64,000 bases of DNA, from IMG/VR virus record IMGVR_UViG_3300022924_000001, positions 1 through 64,000 of that record; one strand, given 5' to 3'. A program made the translations under genes and the position numbers. The notes under the pieces were generated by a model. That model worked only from the letters and a program-made list of their open reading frames with translations, did no database searches and had not been told where the DNA came from. Positions 5,514-59,700 of this stretch are shown in pieces. Numbering within the stretch: the stretch's first letter is position 1; the number at the start of each line of letters is the position of its first letter. This DNA comes from a virus.

Positions 5514-5564
5514 CAAAAGTACCATATTTCTATGGCACTTTAAAATTACTTATCTTATGGGTTT
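5514..5564 (-). promoter_or_regulatory. late promoter (AAACCC-N7-AAGTAATTTTA-N19-TACTTTTG)
   Basis: Minus-strand reading: AAACCCATAAGATAAGTAATTTTA, a 19-nt spacer, then TACTTTTG (TAnnTTTG), 20 nt before the ATG at 5494. One of five copies with identical spacing. Confidence 0.6.
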
Positions 5565-7497: not shown

Positions 7498-7698
7498 TTA
7501 AGCTATAACTGCCTTAGTTTTTAATCTTTTCCTTGCCTGCTTTAATACGTCCTCGGCAAAGCCTAAATCATCTCCTTTAAATAAATCGACTACAGCCCTT
7601 ATCTTAACATCATAAGGGTTTGTTTCTTTGTTGTATTCTCCAACTTTATTTTGTTTTTCTGAGTCTACAATGTGAACCCCTAAATTTTGTGCTTCCAT
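7498..7698 (-). CDS. hypothetical protein (66 aa)
   Basis: ORF track, same-strand array. Confidence 0.5.
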   Translation of the reverse strand: MEAQNLGVHIVDSEKQNKVGEYNKETNPYDVKIRAVVDLFKGDDLGFAEDVLKQARKRLKTKAVIA

Positions 7699-7772
7699 TA
7701 TGATTATGAATCATTTATTAATAATGTAAAGATATAGAAATTTTAAGTATAATTACTTATTTTAACTTATAT

Positions 7773-18700: not shown

Positions 18701-19662
18701 ATAGTATGGATACCTTCAACAAAATAATTCTCGGCGTTATCAGTATTTTGTATTACTACTATCTTATAATAGTCGTAACTCTTGTCAAGACCTGTCACAG
18801 ATAACCGGATTGCAAAGTTTGTTATGGATGCCAATTCTGTATTGGCTTCCTTGACAATATCATTCTCATCAAAAATAGGGATTGTATTGGTAATGGAAAA
18901 ATACTCGGATATTTCATTTCCCGATGCATCTGAATAGGCAATGAGAAATTCATATGTTCCTGTTTTTAACCTGCCTCCTAATTGTATTGCAAAAGGAGTA
19001 AGGGTAGGCACGCCGAATTTTTTAAAGATCCTCATCTTATCTGCATTGAAGCAGATTACATCTCCTTGGGGTTCCCCGCATACAATATTCTGGGAATTAA
19101 TATAATCTCCAATCTTATCAATTATGATGTATCTGGGAGGATTATTAAAGTCAGTGAAGTAAATAGTCTTACCACACTTCTCATTTTTGATAACTATTTT
19201 CTTTATGGGAAAGTTTATATCAAACCCAAATCCTAGATTGCAGGCATCATTTAAAAGGGTTTCATATTGTTGAAGTGGTACTTGAGTGGTTTCCTCTAAA
19301 GGTTCAGAAAGAACTTTGTACTTTTGGCAGTCCTCGCATGTTACATCAATATCGGCTATATCAGAATTATTCTGGTTATTTCTTATAGTTCCGAATTCTC
19401 CTACACCCGTAGTTGGATTCACTAAAAATATGTATGTATCATCAGTGCTGATATCATTCTTCCCTCCATGAAATCTATATCCTTCTTTGAAACGGGTAGC
19501 TAAAATATTACTTTGCTCATTACTTAAACTGAAAAAATCTTCTGATGAATTCTCTATGTTTGCATTGAAAGCAAAAGAATATTCAGAAGGTTCTAGGTCT
19601 ATAGGATTTTTGCGGGACATCCCTTTTTTAGGGCTGTTTATACTCTGTGCAGGTTTATTCAT
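12754..19662 (-). CDS. giant virion protein (2302 aa) with C-terminal Cys-rich repeats and a vWA domain
   Basis: Single 6.9-kb ORF. vWA signature: DIVFVLDATASQGG (MIDAS-like DxTxS) ... IIFTTDERPSG. It is preceded by CPIGYTLNTETNTCEK / CPSGYSFNTGTQLCER repeats. Confidence 0.85.
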   Translation of the reverse strand: MNKPAQSINSPKKGMSRKNPIDLEPSEYSFAFNANIENSSEDFFSLSNEQSNILATRFKEGYRFHGGKNDISTDDTYIFLVNPTTGVGEFGTIRNNQNNSDIADIDVTCEDCQKYKVLSEPLEETTQVPLQQYETLLNDACNLGFGFDINFPIKKIVIKNEKCGKTIYFTDFNNPPRYIIIDKIGDYINSQNIVCGEPQGDVICFNADKMRIFKKFGVPTLTPFAIQLGGRLKTGTYEFLIAYSDASGNEISEYFSITNTIPIFDENDIVKEANTELASITNFAIRLSVTGLDKSYDYYKIVVIQNTDNAENYFVEGIHTIDDNSVIYTTSERKDRIDFTAIIKRNPTIKKAEGLTDSNNTLFLYGLETEKEWNLQPVVSLMGSFFQWQTSIAKEGLYQSGIAASQFRGYNRDETYPLALRFLTNDGYYTANFPLIGRESTVLDRTEINNQDRASIEASVANCIIQGRTQRWQYYNDAIETGTCLTENIETNIVIEQQKKFCIVESVVVIPAGTLTIENPDDYTNLKDFIEDNKDDCEEYDYCDYFNISDYSDQNCTPVFTDNCGEPELADEILLVNNVMGELVNKIPKSFPDEYVKIRTTPSCSMFTVKPAGGYERDTDFEQQYMPGGDTVYLRNFASPNTQCSYADQLQNIQTIDEPTESYFHMYYGADTLAGVLTSKDAGCDSVYGAGTFYDKIHEGGLWFKSGFQTQDSLIFEVSKYKLNETDDNIDINGADNGAKIRLNIFNKCSSTTPLYCQIIDLRQGTQIKITKSGADVLFEDSNNVVTTVTGFIGNDFYAVLDTPIASGINAASDPFYRTAPTRGCFNVVTRSIEIARIDVSYDSITLDKKQTYVSDCEYEIPIIQDCTAFPYKKGDFGYSESTDTYPDNAELYNSKSLKIDVSDFQDSEIRLQFEQKFTTGYSEGKYLLKNSTDFRCQPIRHFKMPDNKVAPFMWDDRLAPFAPTVIYPLGITVNENVITSFLDIAVKNNLITQQQRESIVGYEVLRGDRTANKSVEASGYLFDMRKYMEEGNTKYYPNYPYNDLGNDKLNYVENRTALLPHNSNSNYNFTFHSPETDFYKRTIPTELKVEGYVFGKSKGNFAPVKDHPKWVILGRKAKTVATLLAGLESAAELAIKLAAAGENYRVQLGTSSSTNIVGIGLSALAASLGGLEAVAITGRYRYEWLKAFRDLGSPKNFAYYYASEGYYNYIQALQEEGNLVRGLNVGKNLKEGNFTTVNDVTGEKLNINNLDRERSVFISLGEDYPLVWEDQYKEYDNGNIDFNSSSLTFASESGIDKSGKSVDIFKNIASPYVKLKNYIAAQYGTLGSITWISTGYRGDLKNPSDSCISIFGGDTFITRYYIKRKLPLFSVDAMGTASLTPFDYRKYNNIGIQPRFFVDYELGGSTSSGAAIFPDFDSEYRFDSLRGERDMYIQEPSKFYLYYYGIPGMMVETEINTDYREARKEPENNFYPNVGDYMDFTQERDVSIKKPNTFFYNPVYSKNTTSLGYRGLPSTYEKELYDCRFDSPNGVRYSLPDNSENNLSDPWLIYRPLDTYEFKTSFGKLKELRGIESEQVLARFENTTAIFNAVDVLVDGITPSTQSLGTGGIFARRPITFSNTELGYGGTQSSQSISNEFGHFHVDAKRGQVMQIENSGKGMKEISGYDQGMRNWFKEHLPFKILKYFPDVDTDNAYNGIGISMGFDSRFNRVFITKKDYVPLDDKCIEYTPTGFVVNDTECNDTPKILTCPIGYTLNTETNTCEKTVLSPACPSGYSFNTGTQLCERTTGDCSEGLDIVFVLDATASQGGTIDNIKNAISSDIVPAIIENFGADYRLSLIVIRDQRGDGQFLFEILEPFSLGNETTFLTQINTVSAAFGAGNPEPSDLALAAALDNSPALDKNGTVVSATTIGVFRENAAKAIIFTTDERPSGFDDAYDFSDWLNADAQATKANNMGVKIFSYFTGNNTVIPPVPPVGITPPNNTYIMQNYASVTGGTYYFKPFGIDISDSVVDAIVNGVGCTETAQPNCVDSCVRDEDICECTQTTEPVLNDVIIPIDITDPEYFKEVSFTIAYSPILNQWISFYSFAPNYYINHQNYFQTGINSIGSDKGLWSHLLTNQSYQVFYGVKQPFIIDYTTKTVLGEKNLESLSFNSNTRRYHGKYDWAELQNKPFSSLVIYNNLSNTGKLELVNNSGSASLISKYPKTSDDKNSQQILATYKNDNWFINYFYNRVLNNDTNNPLWIWDANQINKTINSDIVKFGGKKILEKMKGLYFNIRLTQDQESRYQYIYRFGVTQEKTEQ

Positions 19663-20513
19663 TATTTACCCCGGGCAAACATCCCGAATATTTCTGTTCT
19701 TTTTTTATTTTGCTTGACCATATCTTTCCACCATCTTCCTCCCATTCCTTCAAACTTGGCAGAGGTCATGGCATTGGAAAAACTATCCCTTTCTAATTGA
19801 AGATAAAATTGTACTTTGGCCTGTACGTTTTCATCGTCCCCATTACTCCAAAGATTCTGGTATATTTTTCTCTTCAGGTGGTTCTCTAAATATTCGAATA
19901 CATAATTTCCCTGTACTTCAGGGATAATAAGTTCGTCATTCTCATCTACAGGCAGTCCCTGAAACTCTATAAGAATATTACCGGTGTTAAAATTCGTCTT
20001 TATGAAATCCCCTTCTATTTTTATCTCATACTGGCAGTTAGTGGTATTATTTAAATTTACATTTTTGGTGTGAATTTTAACAGATCCTTTACTTATTTTA
20101 AGTAATTCTGGTTTTCTCCTGTTTTTGCGTCCATCATGAAAATAAGTGGTCTCTGTAACTTCCGTGAACTCTCCATCCTTATAACTGTTACTCTGGTTAT
20201 CCCATTCTTTTTGCGCTTCTTTTCTTACTTTATACCTATAGAAGTCTTCTATAGTATCTTCTTTCTCGTCCTGTTCATATTCTTCTTCATAAAATTTTAT
20301 TGCTGATATCAAGCTGTAAAAGTTATGGGGTAATCTTACCTGACCATTTTTAACTTTCAAAACCGTACTAACAATTGGCATTATGTTTCCCCCGAATTTC
20401 TCCAGACCGTTTTTAATCCACAAATTAAGTGAGAGCTCGTCCAGCAAGCCACTCTCATTATATTGTTTGAGGTCGGTCTGAATTTGTGCTATTAGGTTAC
20501 TGCTGGTTATCAT
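19662..20513 (-). CDS. virion-module protein (283 aa), unknown function
   Basis: ORF track. Its stop shares nt 19662 with the start of the giant gene. Confidence 0.7.
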   Translation of the reverse strand: MITSSNLIAQIQTDLKQYNESGLLDELSLNLWIKNGLEKFGGNIMPIVSTVLKVKNGQVRLPHNFYSLISAIKFYEEEYEQDEKEDTIEDFYRYKVRKEAQKEWDNQSNSYKDGEFTEVTETTYFHDGRKNRRKPELLKISKGSVKIHTKNVNLNNTTNCQYEIKIEGDFIKTNFNTGNILIEFQGLPVDENDELIIPEVQGNYVFEYLENHLKRKIYQNLWSNGDDENVQAKVQFYLQLERDSFSNAMTSAKFEGMGGRWWKDMVKQNKKRTEIFGMFARGK

Positions 20514-21120
20514 TGTTTTTCTTTATTGCGTCCAAAGTCTTTATTCTGTTACCGTATAAATTCTGTAATGGGGTGTAAGCGGACTTATATTTTTTACCAT
20601 CTATTAATTGATAGTAAAGTACGCGTGATATCTTTTTTACCAGAAAGGTTTTATCCATTTGCCATACTTTTAATGCATTGTCTTTTCTTATAGGAATAAA
20701 AGATAAGGAGTATAAAACGCCATCAGTATGTAGATTAGTGTATCTTTTCATCTCTTTACCGTTATATTTCTCAATTATTCTTTTTTGAGGATATCTAAAA
20801 ACAGAAAAATAACCGTAATCCTTAATGAAAACTCCTGCCTCATTGTGTACCATTCTATAGGCAATAGTTTTCAAAGCTTCCTTATAAATTATCTTGATTT
20901 CCTCAGTTGTAATGTCAGGTATTGATGGTAGTATTTTCTCCCTGCAAAAGGTATGGAATTTTTGATTTTTTATAAGTGTTATACAGTTAACTAAGTTTTT
21001 TCTGGTTATATAGCGGTTTGGTATATTCCTGTTTTTTTCCCTATTAAGGTTGGCAGGATTTAAAGGGTTTGACCTCCTGATTTTCCTTACCGCGTCTTCT
21101 TTTCTGTATTTTACTTTCAT
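20497..21120 (-). CDS. virion-module protein (207 aa), unknown function
   Basis: ORF track; overlaps its neighbours at both ends. Confidence 0.65.
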   Translation of the reverse strand: MKVKYRKEDAVRKIRRSNPLNPANLNREKNRNIPNRYITRKNLVNCITLIKNQKFHTFCREKILPSIPDITTEEIKIIYKEALKTIAYRMVHNEAGVFIKDYGYFSVFRYPQKRIIEKYNGKEMKRYTNLHTDGVLYSLSFIPIRKDNALKVWQMDKTFLVKKISRVLYYQLIDGKKYKSAYTPLQNLYGNRIKTLDAIKKNNDNQQ

Positions 21121-21789: not shown

Positions 21790-21840
21790 CAAATATACCG
21801 TTTTGGCGTTTATTTTTAAAATTACTTATCTGACGGGTTT
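21790..21840 (-). promoter_or_regulatory. late promoter (AAACCC-N7-AAGTAATTTTA-N19-TATATTTG)
   Basis: Minus-strand reading: AAACCCGTCAGATAAGTAATTTTA, 19 nt, TATATTTG. The -7 box ends only 4 nt before the ATG at 21785, so the mRNA would be leaderless or nearly so. Confidence 0.55.
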
Positions 21841-36242: not shown

Positions 36243-36261
36243 TTTATATTTGGTTTTAATG

Positions 36262-36312
36262 CAAATTTAAATCAGATTTGACAAAGAAAAAATTTACTTG
36301 TTTTTTAGGTTT
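36262..36312 (-). promoter_or_regulatory. late promoter variant (AAACCT-N7-AAGTAAATTTTT-N18-TAAATTTG)
   Basis: Minus-strand reading. The -7 box lies 19 nt before the ATG at 36242. An AGCCC/GGGCT hairpin (36313-36335) lies between it and the stop of the 562-aa gene. Confidence 0.5.
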
Positions 36313-36348: not shown

Positions 36349-38037
36349 TTAGTTAAATCCTTTTCTTGCTGCTTCATCAAGTTCAATAACAACAAATCTG
36401 GTAAGGTCTCTCACGTGTATTGCAACACTAGAGTGAATCCAGAAGGACTGTGCCATTGTTTTGTATGAAGAAACTACATCAGCAGCTTTCTTGTTACTGT
36501 AGCGTCCATTATCTGAACCCCAGTAAGTCATCTCACCTTCTGGCTTAACAAGATAGATATTTGCCTTAGTATTACCGCCTTCTATAACGGTTGCTCCTTG
36601 AGGCATTTTCTTGTTATTAGAGTAAGATTGGTCAGCCACATCCCAGATAATAAGAGAGTAAGAAGTATGTGCTCTTCCTCCTGTGTGCATACCTTTCTGG
36701 ATACGGTCTGTCATTGGGATGCTGTTTAATGAAGGATCTTCCTCTACCTGTAGATTACCAATACCTGCAATATAAACCTGAGTAAATCTCACTGGTTTCA
36801 TTACTAAGTTCAATAAATCATTTCCTGAAACTGGGTTAGGAATAGTTCTTTCTGAGCCCAAGAATCTTCCGATAGAATCGTACTGTGCATTGATTTCATC
36901 CTTGAAAATCTGATAGATATTTTCTACCGCGTCTTTACCACCCTTAAATTTAATAAATCTGTCAACATCCGGCATATCATTAGAACGGAAAACATATTCT
37001 ACCGCATTCTTTATATGTGATCTTGTAATACCACCCGGCTTAGCGTATTTAATAAGTTTACCTCTACGGATTTGGTGGAAAAGACCTTCATTAAGTCTTG
37101 TAACTCCATTTGAATCCCTTATAGTCCCTGCTTTTTGGAATAAAAGAGCGTGGGCTACAAGTTTTTCGTGTTCCCTGTGTACCAAGAATTCCATAGTTGC
37201 TCCAATTCTCATAGTGGTTGGTCTGGCTTTTCCTGTAACACCGTCACGGTCTGCGATAACTGCGAACTCACCAAGGTCTTGTGCCTCGTTCATCAAATCA
37301 TCTATATATGCTCTTGAGTGTGCTGTTGCTCCACTGAAGTTTTTTCTGTCTGCCTTACCAGTTACGTACGCTTCAACCCCTGACATATTTCCTAATTGGA
37401 ATTGACATGTCATAGTTGTAGGAGAATCCATAAAATCTACGTTAGAGTAGTTTTGTGCGTATTCACCAAACATAGTATGGCTAATTTTGTAATACTGGAT
37501 ACCTTTTACAAGTAAAGAAGCATCGTAGTAAGCCCGTTTTGAATTTGAAACTAATTTAACTGAGTGTTCAAATCCTTCATTCACTAACCTGATCTCTTCG
37601 TCTCCCGAAACCACAATCTGATCTCCATATAAAGGATCACATGAAAGTACATCTCCCGGAGCAAACTGTTTGGTTAGTACAATTTTAAAAGGTGACTCAT
37701 CAATACCCGGGAAATCCTGATTGGATGTGTCACGGATAGTTGTACAGTTCATACTTTCCTTGATTGCAATATCATAGGTGAAACTACCATCCTCTCCGTT
37801 AACTTCCATTACCGCTTTGTTAGCAAGAAGTTCACGATACATAGGATAAGTTGTTTTGGCCTGTTGCCCCCATAATTGCATCAAACCTAAGTGATGCTTA
37901 TTAGGGTCTTCCTGATACCACGAGCCCATAGATGCCATATCTTGGTACCCTTGGATAGATTGAACCGTTTTTCTGTCGGTAAATTTGATTACATGATCTC
38001 CGTTATACAGAGACCTATTTGTTTGCGTAACACTCAT
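36349..38037 (-). CDS. major capsid protein candidate (562 aa)
   Basis: Synteny is portal, scaffold-like, then this gene. It is followed by a hairpin. I recognised no sequence motif. Confidence 0.55.
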   Translation of the reverse strand: MSVTQTNRSLYNGDHVIKFTDRKTVQSIQGYQDMASMGSWYQEDPNKHHLGLMQLWGQQAKTTYPMYRELLANKAVMEVNGEDGSFTYDIAIKESMNCTTIRDTSNQDFPGIDESPFKIVLTKQFAPGDVLSCDPLYGDQIVVSGDEEIRLVNEGFEHSVKLVSNSKRAYYDASLLVKGIQYYKISHTMFGEYAQNYSNVDFMDSPTTMTCQFQLGNMSGVEAYVTGKADRKNFSGATAHSRAYIDDLMNEAQDLGEFAVIADRDGVTGKARPTTMRIGATMEFLVHREHEKLVAHALLFQKAGTIRDSNGVTRLNEGLFHQIRRGKLIKYAKPGGITRSHIKNAVEYVFRSNDMPDVDRFIKFKGGKDAVENIYQIFKDEINAQYDSIGRFLGSERTIPNPVSGNDLLNLVMKPVRFTQVYIAGIGNLQVEEDPSLNSIPMTDRIQKGMHTGGRAHTSYSLIIWDVADQSYSNNKKMPQGATVIEGGNTKANIYLVKPEGEMTYWGSDNGRYSNKKAADVVSSYKTMAQSFWIHSSVAIHVRDLTRFVVIELDEAARKGFN

Positions 38038-38062: not shown

Positions 38063-39133
38063 TTATGGTAAGTCAAAGCTAAAGGTGCTTGTTGTATCCT
38101 CTAGGGGAGCAACTGTTTTCTTATCTTTGTTTTTTGGTATAAAGCTTATAGTTTTGAAGGTTTCAATATTATCTTTTCTTTTACTGTCTACAGCCTTAAG
38201 TTTGAGATAATTTTCTTTGTCGGCCAAAAAGTAAATGAGCTCCTGCGCTCTTTTTGGATCTTCCATGACTTCATTATAAAGTCTGTCTACTTCCATCATA
38301 CCTTCCTTATTTTCCTTTGTTGCAAGGTCTATAAGTTTTTTGGCGGTTACATCCTGAATCCCCTGTTCTTTGTATAGTTTGGATAATTCTGAACGGTATT
38401 TTTTAATGTCTTCTTGCTCTTTTATTCTTTCTGCCTGAACTGCTTTTTCGGCTTCGGCTACAGTCTTATCGTAATTACTTTGGTGAAAGTCTACAATTCT
38501 TTTGGCTTTTTCATCAAGGACAGAATCTTTCTTATCTTTCTCTACAAGCAACTTGGCCTGATCTTCATCATTCCCATTTGCAAGGTATTGTCTGAAAACT
38601 ATAGTTGATTGGTGACTTTCATCATCAATATCCCAACCATCAGCCTCTTCAAAAGGTCTTTTGACTAAATCAGGTGTCTGAAATATTTGCCTTAAATCTC
38701 CTTTTTCCTTGATTATATTGATAAGCTTCTTTTGGTTTTCATCAAGTCCTTCAACAGAGACAAACTTCTCTTTTATTTCTTCCTGTTGTTTTGTCTTTTG
38801 GCTTTCCAGAATAGATAGGTAGTAGTCTTCGTCTAAATCTGTGAGTTCTGATAGCTTTACTACATTCCCCTCTGAATCTTCAACTTCAGCGTCTTCCCAA
38901 TCTCCTCTTTCAATCAGTCTTTTTGCTAAGGTAGCGTACTGGTTAGGTTTTGTATCAAATTTGGGAACTTCTGCAATTACCGGAGGATCTGTAGTAATTA
39001 CCTCTTCTGCGGGAGGTGTTAAATCTAAATCGGGTACTTCCTGCGTAACCTCTTGTTGTTCTGTTGGTAAATCGAAATTGAATTCTGCTAATGCTTCAAT
39101 AGTAGTAGCTCCTTCTTGAATTTGGTTTTTCAT
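38063..39133 (-). CDS. scaffolding protein candidate (356 aa)
   Basis: Very acidic, E/K/D-rich coiled-coil composition. It lies between the portal and capsid candidates. Confidence 0.55.
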   Translation of the reverse strand: MKNQIQEGATTIEALAEFNFDLPTEQQEVTQEVPDLDLTPPAEEVITTDPPVIAEVPKFDTKPNQYATLAKRLIERGDWEDAEVEDSEGNVVKLSELTDLDEDYYLSILESQKTKQQEEIKEKFVSVEGLDENQKKLINIIKEKGDLRQIFQTPDLVKRPFEEADGWDIDDESHQSTIVFRQYLANGNDEDQAKLLVEKDKKDSVLDEKAKRIVDFHQSNYDKTVAEAEKAVQAERIKEQEDIKKYRSELSKLYKEQGIQDVTAKKLIDLATKENKEGMMEVDRLYNEVMEDPKRAQELIYFLADKENYLKLKAVDSKRKDNIETFKTISFIPKNKDKKTVAPLEDTTSTFSFDLP

Positions 39134-39143
39134 TTTATTATGG

Positions 39144-39193
39144 CAAATGTAGTATGGTTATACGTGTTAAAAAAATTGCTTGTTTTTTAAGTT
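39144..39193 (-). promoter_or_regulatory. late promoter variant (GAACTT-N7-AAGCAATTTTTTT-N17-TACATTTG)
   Basis: Minus-strand reading. The -7 box lies 10 nt before the ATG at 39133. It is the weakest of the five copies. Confidence 0.4.
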
Positions 39194-39233
39194 CTGTCCT
39201 TAGCTGATATATAATTGCTTAGTTGGTATGTAA

Positions 39234-42005
39234 TTAGTTCTTATTTACTAATGCTATTGTCTCGTTTGATCTTATTTTATCCCGCTGTATCTGAAGGGCT
39301 TCCCTTTCTAAGTCCAACTTTTGCTGTTCCAAGGATTTTCTGTCTTCGGATTCTTTTTGTTTTAAGTTACCTAATCCTTGTTTCATCATCAGTTCTTGAT
39401 TCCTGAATGAGTTTTTCAAATCGTTTTCGGCAGCCTGTGAAACCTTGTCGAAGTATTCGTCCTGTGGTGACCTTCCTGAGCCTACTTTAGATATTCCGTC
39501 TATCTCTGCCTTTTCAAGCATAGTATCCCTGTCTTTTTGTTTTTCTACAGCTATAAATTGTCTCTCAGTATCTTTCTCTAGTTTCTGGGCTTCAATCTGT
39601 TTATCAAGCAACATTTGTTGGTTTTCTCTTTCTGCGGCAGCCTCTTTTTCTTTTTCCAGCCTGTTCTCTCTTCCTACCTGTATAAGCTCAACAACAGAAC
39701 GTGCTTTGACTATCTGGCTAAAATCCAGAATATCTGAACCCTGTGTATTGGTCTGCAACATAATATTCTTTAGGTTTTCCAACTGTTTTTTATCGTTGGA
39801 ATTATTGGTAGGTATTATTCCAAAATGTCTTAGTGGGAAATAAGGGTCTGATAATTCTATAAATACTTTATCACCATCAGATTTTGTATAGTAATATGCT
39901 GCGTCCAGATTATTTTTCTGGCAGTACTGCGCTACACAAAGGTGTATGTGATTTGCTTTTTTATTACCGGAAGACATTGCTGAGAATATGGGCTCTGTTT
40001 GTGCATATGAGGCTGTCAGTCCCTGTTTAATACCTTCGGCGGTTGTATACTCCGATGCATTACCAATTCGTTGTTGGGTTATACCTATTTGTTCTAAAGC
40101 GAGTATCTTATAACGCTCTGCAAGATTCATTCTGTTATTGATCTGCTCGGTGAAGGTAATGCTCTGGCTCATGAAGGTATTCATTCCCTGTCCGGCTCCC
40201 TGCATATTCTGTTTTTTGGTATCTATAGGGACAATACCTATTTCAACTGCGGCCTCACGTAGCATCTCAAGTGTCTCTCTTGTACCAATGTTATCCTTGT
40301 ACTCTGACGGCAAATAATTGACATCAAATAAAAGGAAAGTTCCAATCTCTTTTTCAAGGAGATTAAATATCTGGTTCATGCATATATTGTGCATGATTAT
40401 AAAAGGCCTTAGCTTTTTGGCAATAGAGTTTCCTATAAGACCTGCAACCGGAAGTTTGATATCATAAAGGTTTGAATCCCCTTTTATCTGGTAAGGTAAT
40501 GGCTCTCCGCCTAAATACAAATCCTCATTAAGAAAACTATTGCCCGCATTTACCTTTACTCCCCATCTTACCTGCGGTCTGTAAGTAAATGCAATAGTAT
40601 TAGGCTCAGGATTGTTTTCTATATCTTCAAGTGTTACCTTGCGTAGAGTCCTTATTTCGTTCTCAACCAAGAAATCCTTTACAAGATCATCAGTAATTAT
40701 TTGTTGGTCTGGGATGCCATCTTTAGTAATATAATTTAGTATTCCGATTCTCTGCCAGCCTTTCCAGTAAGATTCTGTACATTGGTGTAAATCATTTCTT
40801 ACAGAGATATCACTTCTAAGCTGGCTTGCAAAATTATTGACATTATTCATGCCCTTATTTAAAGGAGAGAACCAAGTATCTTCTTTGCTTGTGGTGCCGT
40901 CTTCATTTATCACTGTAGACTCTCCCAGAGGTATATTAAATGCATCCTGAAGCTGTAGGGTTACATCATAATCGAAATAATCCTCAAAAGGAACATATAC
41001 CTGATCTTGGAAATTCTTGTCAAGTATGTTTTTGAAAGAACTCTCCTGTCCAGAAGAAAGTACACTTTCAGTATTTTTATTGTAGTATCCTGATAATCGT
41101 TGTTGTTGTTCGGCAGTTAATTTATTTCCCCAGCGTTCCATTATCTGGTTTGCCGATAAATAGTGTACCTGCCCTACATACTCCCCGTCCTGCGGGTATT
41201 TTATATCAACGTCCTCCGAGAAAAATGTCGTAACTGATTTCCATCTTTCAGGTCGGTAAAAATCATAACCTATATGGTAATTCCTGAACCATCTTCCTGT
41301 GAGTATGTAGTCGGTTATTTCTTCCTCATCCATCTCGTCCATATCAAACCTGTCACGGTCTATATCGAGGGTATTCTGAGCCCAGATGGCAGCTTTTGTT
41401 TTCCAGTTTTTATTCATGTCTTTCTGGATAAGATCCGGCGATATTAATTCTGCCTTTTTCTGCTCCAGTGCCTGCATGAATTGTTGCTGTTCCTCTTCTG
41501 AACTGAATTCCTGTTCAAGGTTTACTCCTGCCTCCAATAATTTTCTTTGAAGTTCTATATCAAAAAGCTGTTGTGTGTACTCTTTTACCCTTTGTGTCTT
41601 ATCCCTTATGTATTCATTTTGGGAAAAAGGGTCTTCAGTTGTAATTGTATAACTGTCCTTAAATTTTCCATATTCCCCGCGAATCTGGTTCACTATCATT
41701 CCCAGAAAGTCGTAGTGTTTCGGGGAGGATGTTATCTGTACTTCATTGACAAGTTTTACAAACTCATCGGTCTTGTCTGATAACCCATAGTCGGAGAGAA
41801 TAAGCTCCCCATTTATCATCCTATAATAATCCTGAAACTCTATATTTCTTTCCAGCTGTCTTATAGCTATCTCTTCGAGCCTGTCCAATGTAGAGTTTAC
41901 CCATTTCGGGGTTTTCTTTGAATCGGGTATGGCTTGAGGTGGTAGTGCCGAAGAATTTTCTCCTGATAAGCCTACACCGTTAAAAAATGCGTGGTTTGAA
42001 TTCAA
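39234..42005 (-). CDS. portal protein candidate (923 aa)
   Basis: Supported by its size, its position immediately downstream of the large terminase, and its charged coiled-coil C-terminal tail (EKEKEAAAERENQQ...). Confidence 0.55.
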   Translation of the reverse strand: MNSNHAFFNGVGLSGENSSALPPQAIPDSKKTPKWVNSTLDRLEEIAIRQLERNIEFQDYYRMINGELILSDYGLSDKTDEFVKLVNEVQITSSPKHYDFLGMIVNQIRGEYGKFKDSYTITTEDPFSQNEYIRDKTQRVKEYTQQLFDIELQRKLLEAGVNLEQEFSSEEEQQQFMQALEQKKAELISPDLIQKDMNKNWKTKAAIWAQNTLDIDRDRFDMDEMDEEEITDYILTGRWFRNYHIGYDFYRPERWKSVTTFFSEDVDIKYPQDGEYVGQVHYLSANQIMERWGNKLTAEQQQRLSGYYNKNTESVLSSGQESSFKNILDKNFQDQVYVPFEDYFDYDVTLQLQDAFNIPLGESTVINEDGTTSKEDTWFSPLNKGMNNVNNFASQLRSDISVRNDLHQCTESYWKGWQRIGILNYITKDGIPDQQIITDDLVKDFLVENEIRTLRKVTLEDIENNPEPNTIAFTYRPQVRWGVKVNAGNSFLNEDLYLGGEPLPYQIKGDSNLYDIKLPVAGLIGNSIAKKLRPFIIMHNICMNQIFNLLEKEIGTFLLFDVNYLPSEYKDNIGTRETLEMLREAAVEIGIVPIDTKKQNMQGAGQGMNTFMSQSITFTEQINNRMNLAERYKILALEQIGITQQRIGNASEYTTAEGIKQGLTASYAQTEPIFSAMSSGNKKANHIHLCVAQYCQKNNLDAAYYYTKSDGDKVFIELSDPYFPLRHFGIIPTNNSNDKKQLENLKNIMLQTNTQGSDILDFSQIVKARSVVELIQVGRENRLEKEKEAAAERENQQMLLDKQIEAQKLEKDTERQFIAVEKQKDRDTMLEKAEIDGISKVGSGRSPQDEYFDKVSQAAENDLKNSFRNQELMMKQGLGNLKQKESEDRKSLEQQKLDLEREALQIQRDKIRSNETIALVNKN

Positions 42006-42021: not shown

Positions 42022-42072
42022 CAAATTTAGGCACTTGCTGTCAGTTTGCAAAATTACTTGGTTTCTGGGTTT
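42022..42072 (-). promoter_or_regulatory. late promoter (AAACCC-N7-AAGTAATTTTG-N19-TAAATTTG)
   Basis: Minus-strand reading: AAACCCAGAAACCAAGTAATTTTG, 19 nt, TAAATTTG, 16 nt before the ATG at 42005. This copy has a full -33 TTTG and -7 TAnnTTTG. Confidence 0.65.
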
Positions 42073-44783
42073 TAAAACAGCCTTCTGCGGGTTGTAGTGA
42101 ATAATTTTGATTTGGATGAACTCACACTCATTTCTTTTTTTTCAGGCTCTTTAATACGCGCCTCTACATAATTTGCGTCGAGATAATGCGCCTGTATAAG
42201 TGCTATACCGAAAGTGGTAATTCTATCGTGGTTTTCTCCCTCTTTGTAGTTTATCATCTCTTCAAGGAGTAGTTCATCATTTATAAGCTCTATACCGTAT
42301 ATTGTATACTCCTTATCATTCTCGTCTTTTAAGGTATGTACCTTATTTGCATAGTTTATGGCCTTATTTAATATAGCTGACTTATTACCTGATGGTGATA
42401 TCCCATAGGTACGGCGATTATTTACTTTCAAAGTTAAATCTCCCGCCATATTGAAGGATGGTACAAGGTATTGGTCGGTTTTATGTAGGGTATCCAAATA
42501 AGTCTTGAATTCCATATCCTCATTCTCCATGAGACACTCGGCATTATAAGCTTCCAAAAGCATGTAGCCTATATTGTGGAACTTACTGTGAGGGTTGGGT
42601 CGGCTCGCATATGTGGCCGCTATCCTGTCACCCCACTCATCATTTCCCGACTGCCTCTTGAAAATCTTGAAACAGCCTACAGAATCACTGTCTGCCTCTT
42701 CCTGCTTGTAATCATCCAGTGATGCAACGTACAGTCCTCTGGGTGGTTTTACAGTGGGGAACTCCCCAAATATTACTACGGGCGAATCGTGAAATCCTCC
42801 TTTATGTGGAAACTTCGGAAGTTCTTTTTTTGAGTGTTCTATTTCAGTATATTTGGAATCCCGACCTTTAAATAAATCTACTTTTCTTCCTGTGAGCCCT
42901 TCTTCCCTTATCCTTCTTAAATGCCTTTCCGCTACTTCCCTATTAAAAGGATTTACTTTTCCAGATAAAAATATTTCTTCCGGGTCATTAGGGTAATAAA
43001 CAATTTCCTTGGTTAAGGATTGTTTATTTTTAGCCAGTTTTAATCTATCAGCTTTAATTATTTCATGACACCTTTTCCAATCGGTAAGTAGTATCTTTAT
43101 TTTTCTGAGTTCTGTTGAATCTGGGCGGCCTAGATAATCGGCCAAATTTGATTCTATTTTCACCATGCCCTCTTTCGCAGACATCGCAGCAGGTGCAAAG
43201 GTTCCGAATTTTCTTCTTTTCCAAGGGATGTCTTCTTTGTCTATACCTCTTTCTAAGGCTTCCCAGTTCATTGGAAGTACGTCATAATCTTCAGGATCAT
43301 TTAGAAATATCAGGGCATCACGTGATAACTCTTCGTTCCCTCCAGTCCCGGACAGTATAGGAGTACAAAGTTTTCCAGCAGGAGTGTCGAAAGAAGGTTT
43401 GGCTCCATTAAGTTGATCTATAAAAGGGGCTTTCATTATCTCATCAATAACAAAGGCATCTGGTGTAAATCCTGCAAGCACCTCAGAGGACTTTTCTCCC
43501 CCGCTGTTAAGGTTTATAATATGTATTACTGCCTGCAAGAGGTTTTTACCTCCTTTGGTCTTTATCCCTAACTGTACTTTTTTAGACCAGTCATTGGTAA
43601 GGTTGTTTGGAGCAAAAGCAGGATTGCAATTCTGCATGGAAACCTTTACGTTCTTTTCAAGCTGACCTAAATCCTTTGCTGATCCCCCACCTACTACCAG
43701 TTCCTTACCACCTGTTATTGCAATGTGATGAAGATGTGAGGCCAATCCTGTACTTTTGAAAAGCCTTCTGGTAGCAGCTATGAATAACATTCTTCCCTTT
43801 ATTTTGGCATCCCTGTAATTGTCCTGAATTATATACCATTCATTATCCCTTAATGGAGGTATTATAACATCTTTCTTTATATCCAGCTGTCCTGTCACAT
43901 TATTCATAGTAGCCCGGGGTATTTCGGTTACAAAGTGGTTTATGTGAAAGTAAAGCCACGGTTCTATAGGTTGTCCGTCTATATTTATACCGTTCTTTAT
44001 TTTTTTAAATTCGTCTACATAAAATTGCAGTGTATTTTTTTCCTGTTCAAAATAGTGCTTGTCTACATTCCACACCGGGACTTTACTCTTATCCATATAG
44101 ATAAGCATCTCATTTTTAGGAGGGCTGTCAAAGTCTATTTTCATAGCCGAGATTTTACGCTCTATCTCGGGATACAGTTTTACCAGCTGCTCGTGCATAC
44201 ACAAAGGAGCTTTCACATTATCATGGAATACTATTCCTGATGTATCCTGTGTGTCGTCTTTTATGTTCAGCGCAGCAATATTATCATCAATCCTTGATAT
44301 ATCAGCAAAGCACTCCTTAAGAAACTTCATTTCATCAGAACGTATATCCTGATTCTCTATCTGGGATATGTCTACAGACTCAACATAAAAATCCACACGG
44401 TCAGTATGGATTTTAATAATAGATAAGCACTCTTTGATAAATGACTTGAATTCTGAGAGGTGATGGTCTCCTTCTGCTTTTTTGACAAAGAATTTTAACC
44501 TGTCGAGTATTTCTTTGGTTATGTCCTGTTGCAGTTTGAATTCATCCCCTTTATATTTTAAGTTGCTTTTTTGAGATGCAAGTTTTTCCTTTACGAACTT
44601 GGACATCTCTGACTTGATTATTTTTTTATTGGTGTGTTCCTTATCAATATAATCTATAAAGTTCTCATCAGAAAGATTTTCATCTGTCTGTATTGATGAC
44701 CAGTCATTATTTACAATGTACTTTTTGTATTTAAGGAACTGTGGTTTATTTTTCTTTATAAATCCTTTAATAAATTCAGACAT
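42072..44783 (-). CDS. terL: terminase large subunit with ~330-aa N-terminal extension (903 aa)
   Basis: Walker-A-like FIAATRRLFKSTG, Walker B DAFVIDEI, and a C-terminal RNase-H-like nuclease motif LYVASLDDYKQ...DSDSVGCFKIF. Confidence 0.7.
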   Translation of the reverse strand: MSEFIKGFIKKNKPQFLKYKKYIVNNDWSSIQTDENLSDENFIDYIDKEHTNKKIIKSEMSKFVKEKLASQKSNLKYKGDEFKLQQDITKEILDRLKFFVKKAEGDHHLSEFKSFIKECLSIIKIHTDRVDFYVESVDISQIENQDIRSDEMKFLKECFADISRIDDNIAALNIKDDTQDTSGIVFHDNVKAPLCMHEQLVKLYPEIERKISAMKIDFDSPPKNEMLIYMDKSKVPVWNVDKHYFEQEKNTLQFYVDEFKKIKNGINIDGQPIEPWLYFHINHFVTEIPRATMNNVTGQLDIKKDVIIPPLRDNEWYIIQDNYRDAKIKGRMLFIAATRRLFKSTGLASHLHHIAITGGKELVVGGGSAKDLGQLEKNVKVSMQNCNPAFAPNNLTNDWSKKVQLGIKTKGGKNLLQAVIHIINLNSGGEKSSEVLAGFTPDAFVIDEIMKAPFIDQLNGAKPSFDTPAGKLCTPILSGTGGNEELSRDALIFLNDPEDYDVLPMNWEALERGIDKEDIPWKRRKFGTFAPAAMSAKEGMVKIESNLADYLGRPDSTELRKIKILLTDWKRCHEIIKADRLKLAKNKQSLTKEIVYYPNDPEEIFLSGKVNPFNREVAERHLRRIREEGLTGRKVDLFKGRDSKYTEIEHSKKELPKFPHKGGFHDSPVVIFGEFPTVKPPRGLYVASLDDYKQEEADSDSVGCFKIFKRQSGNDEWGDRIAATYASRPNPHSKFHNIGYMLLEAYNAECLMENEDMEFKTYLDTLHKTDQYLVPSFNMAGDLTLKVNNRRTYGISPSGNKSAILNKAINYANKVHTLKDENDKEYTIYGIELINDELLLEEMINYKEGENHDRITTFGIALIQAHYLDANYVEARIKEPEKKEMSVSSSKSKLFTTTRRRLF

Positions 44784-45766: not shown

Positions 45767-46094
45767 TTGGTATGTAAATTGATTTATATTCGTTTTTAGG
45801 CCATTTATCTAAAGGGCATATTTCAGATTCCCCTGTTGGTGATACATATTTTACTTTCTTGGCTATATTACACCCGCAGCTTGGTTCCAGACATACACCT
45901 TCAAACTTCTCCGATTTAAATACGGTATCGAGTACGCGATTTAAAAACAATTTGGTTTTCTGCATGAAACTATAATTGTCAAAATTAAGGGAGTTATAGT
46001 AACATAGCTTGCATATCTCCAGTCTTTGCTTGGATATTTCTGTTTCGTTTTGGTTTACTATGCGGGAATATATCGCCTTAAATGCTTTTATCAT
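45747..46094 (-). CDS. Cys-rich (zinc-ribbon-like) protein (115 aa)
   Basis: CKLCYYN ... CLEPSCGCN ... CPLDKW. Its start overlaps the GroEL stop (TAATG). Confidence 0.55.
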   Translation of the reverse strand: MIKAFKAIYSRIVNQNETEISKQRLEICKLCYYNSLNFDNYSFMQKTKLFLNRVLDTVFKSEKFEGVCLEPSCGCNIAKKVKYVSPTGESEICPLDKWPKNEYKSIYIPNGKTNK

Positions 46095-47644
46095 TACATG
46101 AACGCTTCAGAATTATATACTATACACTCGGTAGATAAAAATGCTGTGGCTATAGAACTTGCATTCTGCAATGCATTTACAGCTATCTTGGTAGGATCTA
46201 TAATACCCTCATCAAAAAGGTTTACTATTTTCTCCGTGACAACATTATACCCCATACCATAAACATCAATATCCAGTTTATTTTCTATCTCCGCATTTTT
46301 CAATATCTGTAAATAAGGATATTCAATCGCTCTTTTAAGAACGTTTACAGCCTCATTTTCAGCATCACCTGCCAATACTTTTGCAGCATGAAGATAAGCT
46401 GTCCCTCCTCCTGCAAGATACCCTGACTCTATTGCGTTTCTTACAGCATGGTAAGCATCCTCATACCTGTCATATTTCTCTTTTATTTCTACAGCTGAAT
46501 AACCCCCTACCTTAATAACGGCAACTCCTCCTGATAATTTGGCAAGTCTCTGTTTTTGGTTGTTTTTTTCATGGCCTTCCTCTGTATTCTGGATTTGGGC
46601 TTTCAGCTGTACCTGTCTTTCCTTTATCTTATTTTTATCTCCGGCTCCCCCTACAATGGTGGTGTTTTCTTTGGCTATTGTTATTTTAGAACATTCACCA
46701 AGCATATCTTCAGTGACATCTTTCAGGGAACTGCCATCTTCTTTGGATATTACTTTACCACCTGTAAGTACTGCAATGTCTTCCAAATTATTTTGCCTTC
46801 TGTCTCCATACCCCGGCGCTTTTACTGCCACTGCCCTTAGCTGTTGGTTTCTGAAATTTGCTACAAGCGTACTTAAGGTAGTCGGGTCAATATCTTCAGC
46901 TATAATCAGCAAAGGTCGGTTTTTATTTACCGCTATGGAGCAGATATCTAATATATCCATTATGTTCTCTATGTGGTCATTATAGAGAAGTATAAAAGGG
47001 TTATCTAATTCACATAAAGCCTTTTCGAAGTTGTTTTGAAAGTAGGGTGATAGGTATCCATTATCAAAGTTCATACCCTCAACAAAATCAACCACAGTTG
47101 TATTACCGTTTGATTCTTCAATTGTAACTACACCTTCTCTGCCCACTTTAGTTATGGTATCCACAATTATCTTGGCGATATCTTTGTCACCATTTGCAGA
47201 CACCCTTCCAATCTGTAATTGTATTTTTCTATTTGTTGCCTTTTTTGACAGTTTTTTAAGTTCTGCAATTACTTTTTCGGTGGCAAGATCAATCCCCTTT
47301 TTAAGGTCAGACAAGCTTATACCTTTTTCTATGGCGGCATATCCTTCTGAAATTATAGCCTGCGTAAGAACAGTCGCTGTAGTAGTACCGTCACCCGATA
47401 CGTCATTGGTCTTCTGGGCTACGTTACGAGCCATTTCAGCCCCTATATTCTCAATTGGGTCATCTAGTACTATATCCCTAGCGATAGAGGCTCCATCTTT
47501 AGTAATTACAGTGTTGAATCCTTCCTTTTTAATTATTACATTTTTACCTCTGGCACCTAAAGTTACCTTTACTGCATTAGCAAGTTTGTCAACCCCGGCT
47601 TTTAGTTTGTCTCTGGATTCCTGTCCTGTTATTATCTGGTTCAT
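46094..47644 (-). CDS. groL: GroEL-family chaperonin (Cpn60) homolog, 516 aa
   Basis: AGVDKLANAVKVTLGARGKNVII, VSGDGTTTATVLTQAI (the conserved DGTTTATVL nucleotide-binding motif), GGGTAYLHA. Collinear with GroEL but lacks the C-terminal GGM tail. Confidence 0.9.
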   Translation of the reverse strand: MNQIITGQESRDKLKAGVDKLANAVKVTLGARGKNVIIKKEGFNTVITKDGASIARDIVLDDPIENIGAEMARNVAQKTNDVSGDGTTTATVLTQAIISEGYAAIEKGISLSDLKKGIDLATEKVIAELKKLSKKATNRKIQLQIGRVSANGDKDIAKIIVDTITKVGREGVVTIEESNGNTTVVDFVEGMNFDNGYLSPYFQNNFEKALCELDNPFILLYNDHIENIMDILDICSIAVNKNRPLLIIAEDIDPTTLSTLVANFRNQQLRAVAVKAPGYGDRRQNNLEDIAVLTGGKVISKEDGSSLKDVTEDMLGECSKITIAKENTTIVGGAGDKNKIKERQVQLKAQIQNTEEGHEKNNQKQRLAKLSGGVAVIKVGGYSAVEIKEKYDRYEDAYHAVRNAIESGYLAGGGTAYLHAAKVLAGDAENEAVNVLKRAIEYPYLQILKNAEIENKLDIDVYGMGYNVVTEKIVNLFDEGIIDPTKIAVNALQNASSIATAFLSTECIVYNSEAFM

Positions 47645-47922: not shown

Positions 47923-48413
47923 TATTTTTTGTTATAATTAATATTTTGTAACTCTTCTACTGCGGCGTATATTTCTCCTGACTTTCGTGCTCCCGCATAC
48001 TTGTAATTTTCATATTGCGGGGGCAGGGCACATCTAAATTTTGATGCTAAAGGTAAAAGATAATGCTTTGTTCTGGATTTATAAGTGTTGCTCTCGTCCT
48101 TGTACATTTCTATTCTTGCCTGCCTGTGTTGCCAAAAATCATGTTTTTTTTGAAGTTCTTCATCTTCCTTGTGTTTTAACTGGAACCTTAAATCGCGTAC
48201 TATGTCGTTTATCTTGATCTTGCTTTGGTAAATTATCCCCAGATTAGGAAGGTGTATGGCATATATATCCCTTTCTTTTGTCTGTTCAACAATAAACTTG
48301 AACATATTCCTCTGCACTGCCAGACAACGCTCATAATCCAAACCTGTATTTTCACTTACTTCTCTTGCTATATCCTCCTCATAGGATATTTCGGTTAGCT
48401 CTTTGTTAAACAT
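47922..48413 (-). CDS. hypothetical protein (163 aa), regulator-like
   Basis: ORF track. Second gene of the minus-strand module. ISYEEDIAREVSENTGLDYERCLAV looks HTH-like (weak). Confidence 0.5.
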   Translation of the reverse strand: MFNKELTEISYEEDIAREVSENTGLDYERCLAVQRNMFKFIVEQTKERDIYAIHLPNLGIIYQSKIKINDIVRDLRFQLKHKEDEELQKKHDFWQHRQARIEMYKDESNTYKSRTKHYLLPLASKFRCALPPQYENYKYAGARKSGEIYAAVEELQNINYNKK

Positions 48414-48804
48414 TTCTAAAGCCTATTGTGTAAAGTCTGTATTTTTTTTCTATAAAAGTCTGCCGGATTGATTTGAGGTCTTCATTAAGTTCAAATTTTC
48501 TCATATTGTTCCTGCAAGTAATAAGATATCCTTTATCCCTCAGTTGTTTGTTTATCCCGTGAAGGTGGTTCTTCTTTTTGTTTAGGTCGGCACATACCAT
48601 ATCTAGCGTGTCATCAGAAATACCCTTCCTTACATAATAAACAAGTATGTTTTTTTCAAACTCCCTCAACCTGTCACTGCCCGTAAATTTGATTATGCTG
48701 TAAATGGATATAATCCTTTCTACCAAGTCGATTTCGTTCTTGATTTCACAGGTATTCAGGTGTATATTTACAGGAGTAGCTGACATGGATGTAAAATTAA
48801 TCAT
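48406..48804 (-). CDS. hypothetical protein (132 aa), winged-helix-like
   Basis: ORF track. First gene of the minus-strand module. INKQLRDKGYLI is wHTH-like (weak). Confidence 0.5.
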   Translation of the reverse strand: MINFTSMSATPVNIHLNTCEIKNEIDLVERIISIYSIIKFTGSDRLREFEKNILVYYVRKGISDDTLDMVCADLNKKKNHLHGINKQLRDKGYLITCRNNMRKFELNEDLKSIRQTFIEKKYRLYTIGFRNV

Positions 48805-48912
48805 TTTTATAGTATCTTCCTAATGTTTTAACTTTTTATTAAGAAAATTATAATTTATTTTTATTATGAGACTTTTTCAGCTAAGTAATTTTTTTGGGGG
48901 GTTTTCATTTTG

Positions 48913-48920
48913 TAATTTTG
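48913..48920 (+). promoter_or_regulatory. -7 box TAATTTTG
   Basis: Matches TAnnTTTG, 17 nt before the ATG at 48938. Confidence 0.5.
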
Positions 48921-48937
48921 CATAAAAACCAGTTATA

Positions 48938-49192
48938 ATGAAAGATTACGATGAATTCTATAGCCTGATATGGGGATACTATTTGCAGCCAAGTGACGTA
49001 TCCTACGATTACAGGGAACTTCACACAGACTTCATAAGAAACCTTACGTTTGGTTTTTACAGGGACTACGAGAAGAATAATGTGCATGTATCAGTATATG
49101 CCAAGGCTATGAAAACAGTTTTTATTAACCTGTTCTTGTTTTCTCCTGAGACTACTGACTTTGGAGACTCAAAAGATTATAATGATATTTAG
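48938..49192 (+). CDS. stand-alone hypothetical protein (84 aa)
   Basis: ORF track. It has its own -7 box and its own terminator. Confidence 0.6.
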   Translation: MKDYDEFYSLIWGYYLQPSDVSYDYRELHTDFIRNLTFGFYRDYEKNNVHVSVYAKAMKTVFINLFLFSPETTDFGDSKDYNDI

Positions 49193-50090: not shown

Positions 50091-50098
50091 TTGTAAAT
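50091..50098 (+). promoter_or_regulatory. -7 box TAAATTTG for the early operon
   Basis: Matches TAnnTTTG, 15 nt before the ATG at 50114. Confidence 0.5.
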
Positions 50099-59065: not shown

Positions 59066-59455
59066 ATGAAATGCTTTTGGACAGCGGGGATCTATACGAA
59101 CTATTTCCCCGTGCCACTGGCTCATGGTCAAAAGATGGAAAGAAATTCACTCAAATATATAAGGAAAATCTCAAGACAATGGAAGGATTTGAATCCTGAT
59201 GAGCTAAGTAAGTATTTCCACCAGTTCTGTGATATAAGCTATAGGGATATTGAGATAGTCTGTGGCCTTGCAGAACGAAGAAACTACTTCCAGATACTTT
59301 ATAGTTACGATATCCGCAATACCCTTATCCTTCAACAGTATTTCTTGGATAATGAGATGTACTTGGATTGTGCGGATGTACAAGACCAGATTGAAAACCA
59401 TAATAAGTTAACCGGGGACTGTCTTCCTTATCTATTAAAAGACTTAAAAAAATGA
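59066..59455 (+). CDS. hypothetical protein (129 aa); 5' boundary uncertain
   Basis: ORF track. A competing 51-codon ORF at 59045-59200 in another frame looks at least as protein-like over the first 130 nt. Confidence 0.45.
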   Translation: MKCFWTAGIYTNYFPVPLAHGQKMERNSLKYIRKISRQWKDLNPDELSKYFHQFCDISYRDIEIVCGLAERRNYFQILYSYDIRNTLILQQYFLDNEMYLDCADVQDQIENHNKLTGDCLPYLLKDLKK

Positions 59456-59700
59456 GAGCATACGGAGAAAGAATAGTGGTGTTACCAATTACAGAAGGAA
59501 CAACAATAAAAGGTATACAGGTATCAACAGAGAAGGTTTTCACAGGTATATGTGAGGTGTATTCGGTAGGGGCAGATGTCAAGACCGATATTAAAAAAGG
59601 TGACAGGATTAAGATAATCAGTGATTCAGGAGTGAAAGTCTCAGAAGACGGTGTGGATTACATTGTTATTGTAGGTCAAAATATATTGTGTTATTTATGA
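59452..59700 (+). CDS. groS: GroES/Cpn10-like co-chaperonin (82 aa)
   Basis: Collinear with GroES. ERIVVLPI matches DRVIVKR. The G-rich loop region is TTIKGIQVS. GICEVYSVG matches GEVLAVG. IKKGDRIKII..SGVKV..DGVDYIVIVGQNIL matches [31 protein letters not shown]. Confidence 0.65.
   Translation: MRAYGERIVVLPITEGTTIKGIQVSTEKVFTGICEVYSVGADVKTDIKKGDRIKIISDSGVKVSEDGVDYIVIVGQNILCYL

Follow-up and report, generated by a model that had tools for sequence, protein, structure and literature searches.

To our knowledge, very little is known about the timing of gene expression in Bacteroidota phages, the crAss-like phage phi14:2 being the one studied case. Among activator-dependent phage promoters, the T4 MotA/AsiA middle promoters, the lambda cII-dependent promoters and the late promoters of Mu (C) and P2 (Ogr) all lack a good -35 element, which the activator replaces. 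Bacterial UP elements of the Escherichia coli rrnB P1 type are bipartite, lie at approx. -57 to -38 and consist of degenerate A/T tracts. Phage phi14:2 and related crAss-like phages have extended 'tripartite' middle and late promoters (Drobysheva et al., bioRxiv 10.1101/2020.03.07.982082). Those mapped before the portal gene and gp092 of phi14:2 are rifampicin-sensitive, E. coli holoenzyme by itself transcribes promoters with this core in vitro, the ring-protein region is placed in the middle class, and the early promoters, used by the virion polymerase, have no common motif (bioRxiv 10.1101/2020.03.07.982082). At mapped Flavobacterium psychrophilum starts the TAnnTTTG box spans -12 to -5, and leaderless mRNAs make up approx. 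5.5% in this organism (PMC9723704).

The window analysed in the present study, which is the 64000-nucleotide stretch forming positions 1 to 64000 of the IMG/VR record IMGVR_UViG_3300022924_000001, has 36% G+C and comes from a phage with a genome of 133.4-133.5 kb, as judged from contigs of the same phage in public assemblies. Its nearest cultured relatives are the Cellulophaga baltica phages phi4:1 and phi17:2, with ~66% nucleotide identity over terminase and portal, and we identify it as a relative of these two phages with a crAss-like tail. It is likely to be a marine phage of Flavobacteria, and the Bacteroidota host that an earlier note on this DNA had proposed is likewise likely, because the closest cultured relatives infect C. 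baltica. The gene order parallels that of phi14:2, including the leftward structural module. This leftward block encodes GroEL (46094-47644), the large terminase (42072-44783, the ORF ending at 42072), the portal protein (39234-42005), a 356-aa protein in the scaffold position after the portal gene (ATG at 39133), the major capsid protein (36349-38037), a 327-aa virion protein after the capsid gene (ATG at 36242), a 221-aa virion protein, then tail ring protein 2 (221 aa, PF25702; 21120-21785), ring protein 1 (19662-20513), the crAss muzzle protein (2302 aa, PF25731; 12754-19662), a 774-aa SLT-domain protein and, also on the minus strand, a 917-aa virion protein (ATG at 5494). A basic 207-aa protein is encoded at 20497-21120, the position where crAss-like phages encode an IHF-like protein, and the rightward block, from 48.9 kb, includes RNase H, RecA, GroES (59452-59700) and an exonuclease. 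This phi4:1-like phage combines a crAss-type muzzle and ring-1/ring-2 tail proteins with GroEL and GroES of its own. The window ORFs showed no crAss-type virion RNA polymerase, the 2302-aa ORF being ruled out as a polymerase by its identity as the muzzle protein, and Rfam and tRNA scans of the window found nothing. The portal gene appears to start with TTG (42003-42005, minus strand) in the window and in two relatives (L009, 6016; L010, 6001), and the alignments of homologues begin at residue 5-6 of the TTG-started ORF.

The earlier note had described five copies of a bipartite element on the minus strand, each preceding a late transcription unit, and all five were found at the positions it gave. 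At the portal promoter (42022-42072, minus strand), AAACCC (42072-42067) is followed by AAGTAATTTTG (42059-42049), which includes the -33 TTTG, and by TAAATTTG (42029-42022), with a predicted start at ~42017 and the TTG start codon at 42005. The promoter of the operon of the scaffold-position gene and the major capsid gene (39144-39194, minus strand) consists of GAACTT, matching AAACCC at three of six positions, AAGCAATTTT (39181-39172) and TACATTTG (39151-39144). The promoter of the 327-aa gene (36262-36312, minus strand), with a hairpin between it and the capsid gene, has AAACCT (36312-36307), AAGTAAATTTT (36299-36289) and TAAATTTG (36269-36262). That of ring protein 2 (21790-21840, minus strand) has AAACCC (21840-21835), AAGTAATTTTA (21827-21817) and the box TATATTTG (21797-21790), after which come TAAT and the ATG at 21785; two hairpins and a T-run lie upstream. 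The promoter of the 917-aa gene (5514-5564, minus strand) is composed of AAACCC (5564-5559), AAGTAATTTTA (5551-5541) and TACTTTTG (5521-5514). In addition, we found a sixth copy of the core on the plus strand (48883-48920), where AAGTAATTTT (48883-48892) and TAATTTTG (48913-48920) are followed by an ATG at 48938; it precedes the first rightward ORF (84 aa), next to the replication module. Plus-strand boxes had been thought to be without the upstream half, and the box at 48913 does indeed lack AAACCC, but it carries AAGTAA. As this copy is without AAACCC only, the AAGTAA half is not specific to the leftward strand, contrary to what had been supposed. Two other plus-strand boxes, placed earlier at 50091 and 62987, are actually at 50094 and 62989.

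The 16-base half AAACCC-N7-AAGTAATTTT occurs exactly, and with the identical spacing previously noted for the three best copies, at 5542-5564, 21818-21840 and 42050-42072 on the minus strand, and had no match in 100 dinucleotide shuffles. The copies at 21818 and 5542 have 26 of 29 bases in common. The copy at 36290-36312 shows two mismatches (AAACCT and AAGTAAA), and the copy at 39144-39194, with AAGCAA and half of the hexamer, has the weakest upstream half in the window, as had been recognized. AAACC(C/T) is present in four of the six window copies. The core AAG(T/C)AA-N24-TAnnTTTG gave six exact matches against 0.07 expected, the largest count in any shuffle being one. The box had been said to follow the T-run by 17-19 nt; it is present, but its spacing is stricter than this, since N24 from AAG(T/C)AA is exact in every copy. 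All six core copies are intergenic and correctly oriented, and a start codon lies 4-19 nt downstream. Three copies, those at 36.3, 21.8 and 5.5 kb, have hairpins or terminators immediately before them. A weight matrix built from 11 sites of relatives only, and then run on the window, gave ranks 1 to 3 to the ring-2, 327-aa and 917-aa copies and rank 5 to the portal copy, the portal score of 12.7 not being above the best random-window score of 12.8. Rank 4 was taken by a coding site on the minus strand (12155-12208), inside the 774-aa SLT-domain gene, which scored about as high as the portal copy (14.6, against the same random best); it reads ACCC-N7-AAGTAGTTTG...TATTTTAG and may be either a weak internal promoter or a chance match. 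We found no further copy in the 7.3 kb and 8.4 kb of the same phage beyond the window ends.

To place these elements relative to transcription, we applied the box position from F. psychrophilum (PMC9723704) to the copies. The -7 box TAnnTTTG, found in all six, then spans -12 to -5; the -33 element, which is the TTTG, TTTA or TTTT ending the T-run of AAGTAATTTT(G/A/T), spans -35 to -32, with a 19-bp spacer; AAGTAA spans -42 to -37, the N7 spacer -49 to -43 and AAACCC -55 to -50. TTTG-N19 is exact at the portal copy, and the -33 element is TTTA or TTTT in at least four of the six window copies. The T-run had been counted as part of the extra element; it is itself the -33 element, so that only AAGTAA and AAACCC are additional to the host consensus. 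The T-run was also considered as an RNA-level or terminator feature, which we rejected as it lies ~20 nt away from the hairpins. The copies resemble Bacteroidota primary-sigma promoters in their -7 box, 19-bp spacer, T-rich -33 and short leaders, supporting the proposal of Bacteroidota -33/-7-type promoter-like units before the structural gene blocks, but they differ from ordinary host promoters, as sampled at 133 promoter-like sites, in having AAGTAA or AAACCC upstream.

With a start 5 nt after the box, the predicted leaders are 0-15 nt long. For the ring-protein gene, transcription is predicted to begin at the A of the ATG, and four relatives with 43-64% identity in this protein have the same box-N4-ATG arrangement, which supports the earlier suggestion that this mRNA is leaderless, as we also predict from the sequence. 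The same arrangement (TAGATTTG, CCCT, ATG) stands before a 797-aa gene of the same phage beyond the window start (contig L215, 17845-17981); the box there has no AAGTAA module, and this suggests a second leaderless structural transcript. Many copies, in the window (36243-36262 and 48921-48937) and in many relatives, run TAnnTTTGCA at the -7 box and then (T)AAAACCAAA within the short leader, which could be a start-site or translation-initiation context.

We then compared these sites with those of related phages, for which we collected close relatives (L009-L012, with capsid proteins 77-85% identical, and L217-L219, with ring proteins 62-64% identical) and a distant clade (L003-L008, ~47% portal identity). 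Orthologous portal, scaffold, 327-aa and ring promoters retain (T)AAGTAATTTT, the exact N24 and TAnnTTTG(CA), with the N7 and N19 stretches unconserved among relatives. Across 17 sites from seven related genomes (alignment numbering), the T-run at +6 to +9 is conserved in 16-17 of 17, C at -9, A at -11 and T at -1 in 14 each, and A at -12 and A at -7 in 13 each; AAGTAA and the -7 box are invariant in this set, but both had defined it. The distal hexamer is present in part of the orthologues. The L010 scaffold promoter has an exact AAACCC-N7, the L219 ring promoter has CAACCC-N7, and the scaffold promoter orthologues carry AAACCC, ATACCC or AAATCC, unlike the weak window copy, whereas AAACCC is absent from several of the orthologous portal and 327-aa promoters. 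The portal gene of phi4:1 is preceded by AAGGAATTTTT-N19-TAAGTTTG. In the distant clade, AAGTAATTTG-N20-box is retained, but AAACCC-N7 is replaced by CTCTAAAAnT, a difference between clades that fits a factor and a site evolving together. These ~140-kb genomes have three copies each, of the form CTCTAAAA(T/G)T-AAGTAATTT(G/T)-N-TAnATTTGC, one of which lies on the other strand, ahead of the gene for a homologue of the 84-aa protein.

Given this conservation among phages, we also examined whether the module is found in host DNA. The full 22-base architecture had no match in 185579 bacterial and archaeal species (one genome each). The core AAGTAATTTT-N20-box gave at least 120 scattered matches in bacterial genomes, single-copy and taxonomically mixed, which served as a background sample only; among the matches listed, 44 of 120 were from Bacteroidota, 16 of these 44 precede an ORF, and none of the 44 was above four of the six bases of AAACCC. 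Strict TTG-N19-box sites in the background sample numbered 14, too few for a logo. In 323 kb of Bacteroidota DNA, AAGTAA was found at none of 133 TAnnTTTG boxes before ORFs, anywhere from -36 to -25, and these boxes showed no positional bias upstream of -33. Both AAGTAA and AAACCC are absent from the four mapped phi14:2 promoters used by the host polymerase. Taken together, these comparisons argue against the module being a generic host feature and agree with the earlier placing of the upstream half outside the host consensus. However, the 133 boxes are promoter-like sites, with no rRNA or other very strong promoters identified among them, so that an UP-like element of the host's few strongest promoters is compatible with these controls. 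We found nothing relevant in the literature on a Bacteroidota UP element or on a polymerase-promoter structure. Searches of IMG/VR with AAACCC-N7-AAGTAATTTT gave 42 single matches, none with a -7 box at the right distance, which we dismissed as chance or coding matches, and a metagenome scan with the ring protein recovered only the same phage and one distant relative.

These six sites very probably serve as promoters for the host RNA polymerase carrying its primary sigma factor, given their placement, their host-type core, the upstream terminators and the mapped phi14:2 promoters before homologous genes. As in phi14:2, a host-type -33 and -7 are joined by an additional conserved block, and host-like promoters precede the portal, gp092 and ring-region homologues; the phi14:2 promoters are read by host polymerase, and by analogy those of the window would be too. 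The extra conservation in phi14:2 (P070, P075, P108 and P110; four sequences) consists of TCAnA in the spacer and an A-tract abutting CTTG. In contrast, the window copies show no spacer conservation and have their extra block upstream, at -55 to -37. From the sequence comparison it is therefore this block upstream of -33 that would set them apart from the known phi14:2-type extended promoters. 'Late' timing is something that we infer for these units, and by analogy with phi14:2 the ring-protein unit may be of the middle class.

With regard to the module, we tentatively favour, with rather less than even confidence, the reading that these are host sigma-A promoters with an upstream module bound by a phage factor. 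The host sigma-A polymerase would use TAnnTTTG at -7 and the T-rich -33, starting 5 nt after the box, and AAGTAA, joined in four copies by AAACC(C/T), would form the extra module. AAACCC lies two helical turns upstream of -33 and so on the same face of the DNA. A phage-encoded DNA-binding protein on the module might then contact RNA polymerase, through the alpha C-terminal domain or sigma region 4, and would either enhance transcription of the portal, scaffold/capsid, 327-aa, ring-protein and 917-aa units or set its timing. We lean towards a phage factor because the module is sequence-specific, is confined to this phage family and has a distal half that differs from clade to clade, and the activator that the earlier note proposed for the upstream half is plausible in this light. 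As in the T4, lambda, Mu and P2 systems, a host -10-type element is combined with a phage-specific box at a fixed distance in a few promoters that would be co-regulated. However, unlike in those systems, the -33 element is retained at the host spacing, and we detected no homologues of MotA/AsiA, cII, Mu C or Ogr in the window. Also against a phage factor are the lack of AAACCC at several orthologous promoters and at the plus-strand copy, and the fact that no significant transcription-factor or sigma domain was found in the window ORFs.

The best candidate for such a factor would be the conserved winged-helix-like protein encoded at 48406-48804 on the minus strand, the first gene of the leftward block. 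It is basic, 132 aa long (126 aa from Met7) and contains the winged-helix-like segment HLHGINKQLRDKGYLI. The distant (L004) clade and phi4:1 (gp073) have a homologue in the corresponding place, so that every motif-bearing clade is represented, and none was detected in the half of phi14:2 examined; the family comprises ~106 clusters. Its best PDB match, in which the recognition helix and wing of a MarR regulator are aligned, is not significant (E=0.07). The window protein had no Pfam hit, and a few members of the family give weak winged-helix Pfam hits. A structure model (126 aa, five homologues) had a pLDDT of 49 and was unusable. Pfam and PHROGs searches of ~45 window ORFs revealed no sigma factor and no confident transcription factor. 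We regard this protein as a lead, not a finding, and the specific proposal that AAACCC-N7-AAGTAA is the operator of a winged-helix activator of this family (including phi4:1 gp073), which would recruit or stimulate the host sigma-A polymerase at the structural-gene promoters, is doubtful, although possible.

An explanation without any phage factor is nearly as likely, owing to the near-consensus core and the UP-element geometry. It is quite possible that the module is an UP-like strength element read by the host alpha C-terminal domains, with AAGTAA as the putative proximal and AAACCC as the putative distal subsite, and with timing set otherwise. The module extends from -55 to -36, where a classical UP element lies, directly upstream of the -35 equivalent, with AAACCC (-55 to -50) and AAGTAA (-42 to -37) at exactly the two subsite positions. 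With a near-consensus -33, -7 and 19-bp spacer the core is probably self-sufficient, and by analogy the host polymerase may need no helper. Such a role would also suit the copy ahead of a rightward gene that adjoins the replication module, the genes served, which by analogy with phi14:2 are among the most highly expressed classes, and the window, in which no transcription factor was confidently recognized. However, the element is sequence-specific and partly C-rich rather than an A/T tract, and it has an invariant G and C positions, unlike an UP element. It is also missing from the 133 Bacteroidota promoter-like sites, which is a weak test as no rRNA promoters were identified among them, and the whole architecture is missing from all 185579 genomes. 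Moreover, its upstream half varies between phage clades, and phi14:2, which infects the same host species as phi4:1, has a different upstream sequence.

Two further explanations are, in our view, improbable. In one, the module is bound by a DNA-bending protein, either the phage 207-aa protein (20497-21120) or a host HU/IHF-type protein, which shapes the promoter with no specific polymerase contact. The surroundings are rich in A/T, the A and T runs there being phased, four genomes have phased direct repeats with TAAG ahead of the scaffold promoter, and the 207-aa protein is basic (pI 10.1) and conserved in relatives. However, the fixed N7 and N24 and the invariant bases suggest base-specific reading, and the 207-aa protein was rejected as an IHF/HU protein, having no detectable similarity to the 'IHF' of phi14:2 (g073) or to any solved IHF/HU structure. 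In the other, which we consider equally improbable, AAACCC is the 3' edge of the terminator hairpins that lie upstream, or has arisen through duplication of promoter cassettes. Its CCC is predicted to pair with an upstream GGG at the 917-aa and 327-aa copies, and the 26 of 29 bases common to the 21818 and 5542 copies would suit a duplicated cassette, but this pairing is absent at the ring-protein and portal copies, and relatives with other hairpins and spacers again have AACC(C) at this distance in their ring and scaffold promoters. Finally, promoters of a phage-encoded sigma factor or phage RNA polymerase, in place of the host primary sigma, are very improbable, and with them the sigma-like factor of the earlier note, since, although the motif exceeds typical host promoters in length and uniformity and the domain scan covered the window, in a genome of which all but ~50 kb was examined, both host elements are kept at host spacing with a -7 box of host type, the scanned window ORFs contain no sigma or polymerase domain (the 2302-aa ORF being the muzzle protein), and the early promoters of the phi14:2 virion polymerase share no motif.

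The cis-element described here is clearly delimited, has a strict spacing and is supported by phylogenetic footprinting, and there are a few candidate factors for it. As a version of the element is present in the cultured phage phi4:1 on C. baltica, it is directly testable there. If the preferred reading of a factor-dependent module is true, Flavobacteria and Bacteroidota, in which genetic tools are scarce, would gain a strong promoter part that can be switched; if the winged-helix operator reading is true, this would be the first class of activator-dependent late promoters to be defined in a Bacteroidota phage, with clade-wise co-evolution. If the module is only an UP-like element, it would show the maximal-strength form of a promoter in Bacteroidota.

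Several other features of these genomes were observed. Just upstream of the scaffold/capsid promoter (39195-39233, minus strand), a direct repeat of ~19-20 nt that ends in (C/T)TAAG stands twice in tandem, and this pair is present in all four close genomes (the window, L009 at 8800-8840 and the equivalents in L010 and L011); the first repeat in the window includes AAGCAATTAT, resembling the core AAGCAATTTT. A degenerate seventh candidate on the minus strand (7699-7772) has the form AAGTAATTAT-N20-TACATTAT, with an imperfect -7 box, and faces a 66-aa ORF at 7498-7698. L009, with 83% capsid identity, has an IS605 OrfB/TnpB-like gene (PF01385 and PF07282) at 2179-3258, just upstream of the terminase gene, unlike the window, where there is none at this position. 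The 84-aa protein (48938-49192, plus strand) is acidic (pI 4.6) and 52% identical in the distant (L004) clade, being more conserved than the portal protein. The divergent region (48805-48937) has no TAnnTTTG box upstream of the first leftward gene. It does contain, at 48826-48843 on the minus strand, the sequence CTTAATAAAAAGTTAAAAnnnTAGGA, which occurs once in the window, has a nearly identical counterpart in the same distant clade (~47% portal identity) and may be a promoter of a different kind, e.g. for early expression.
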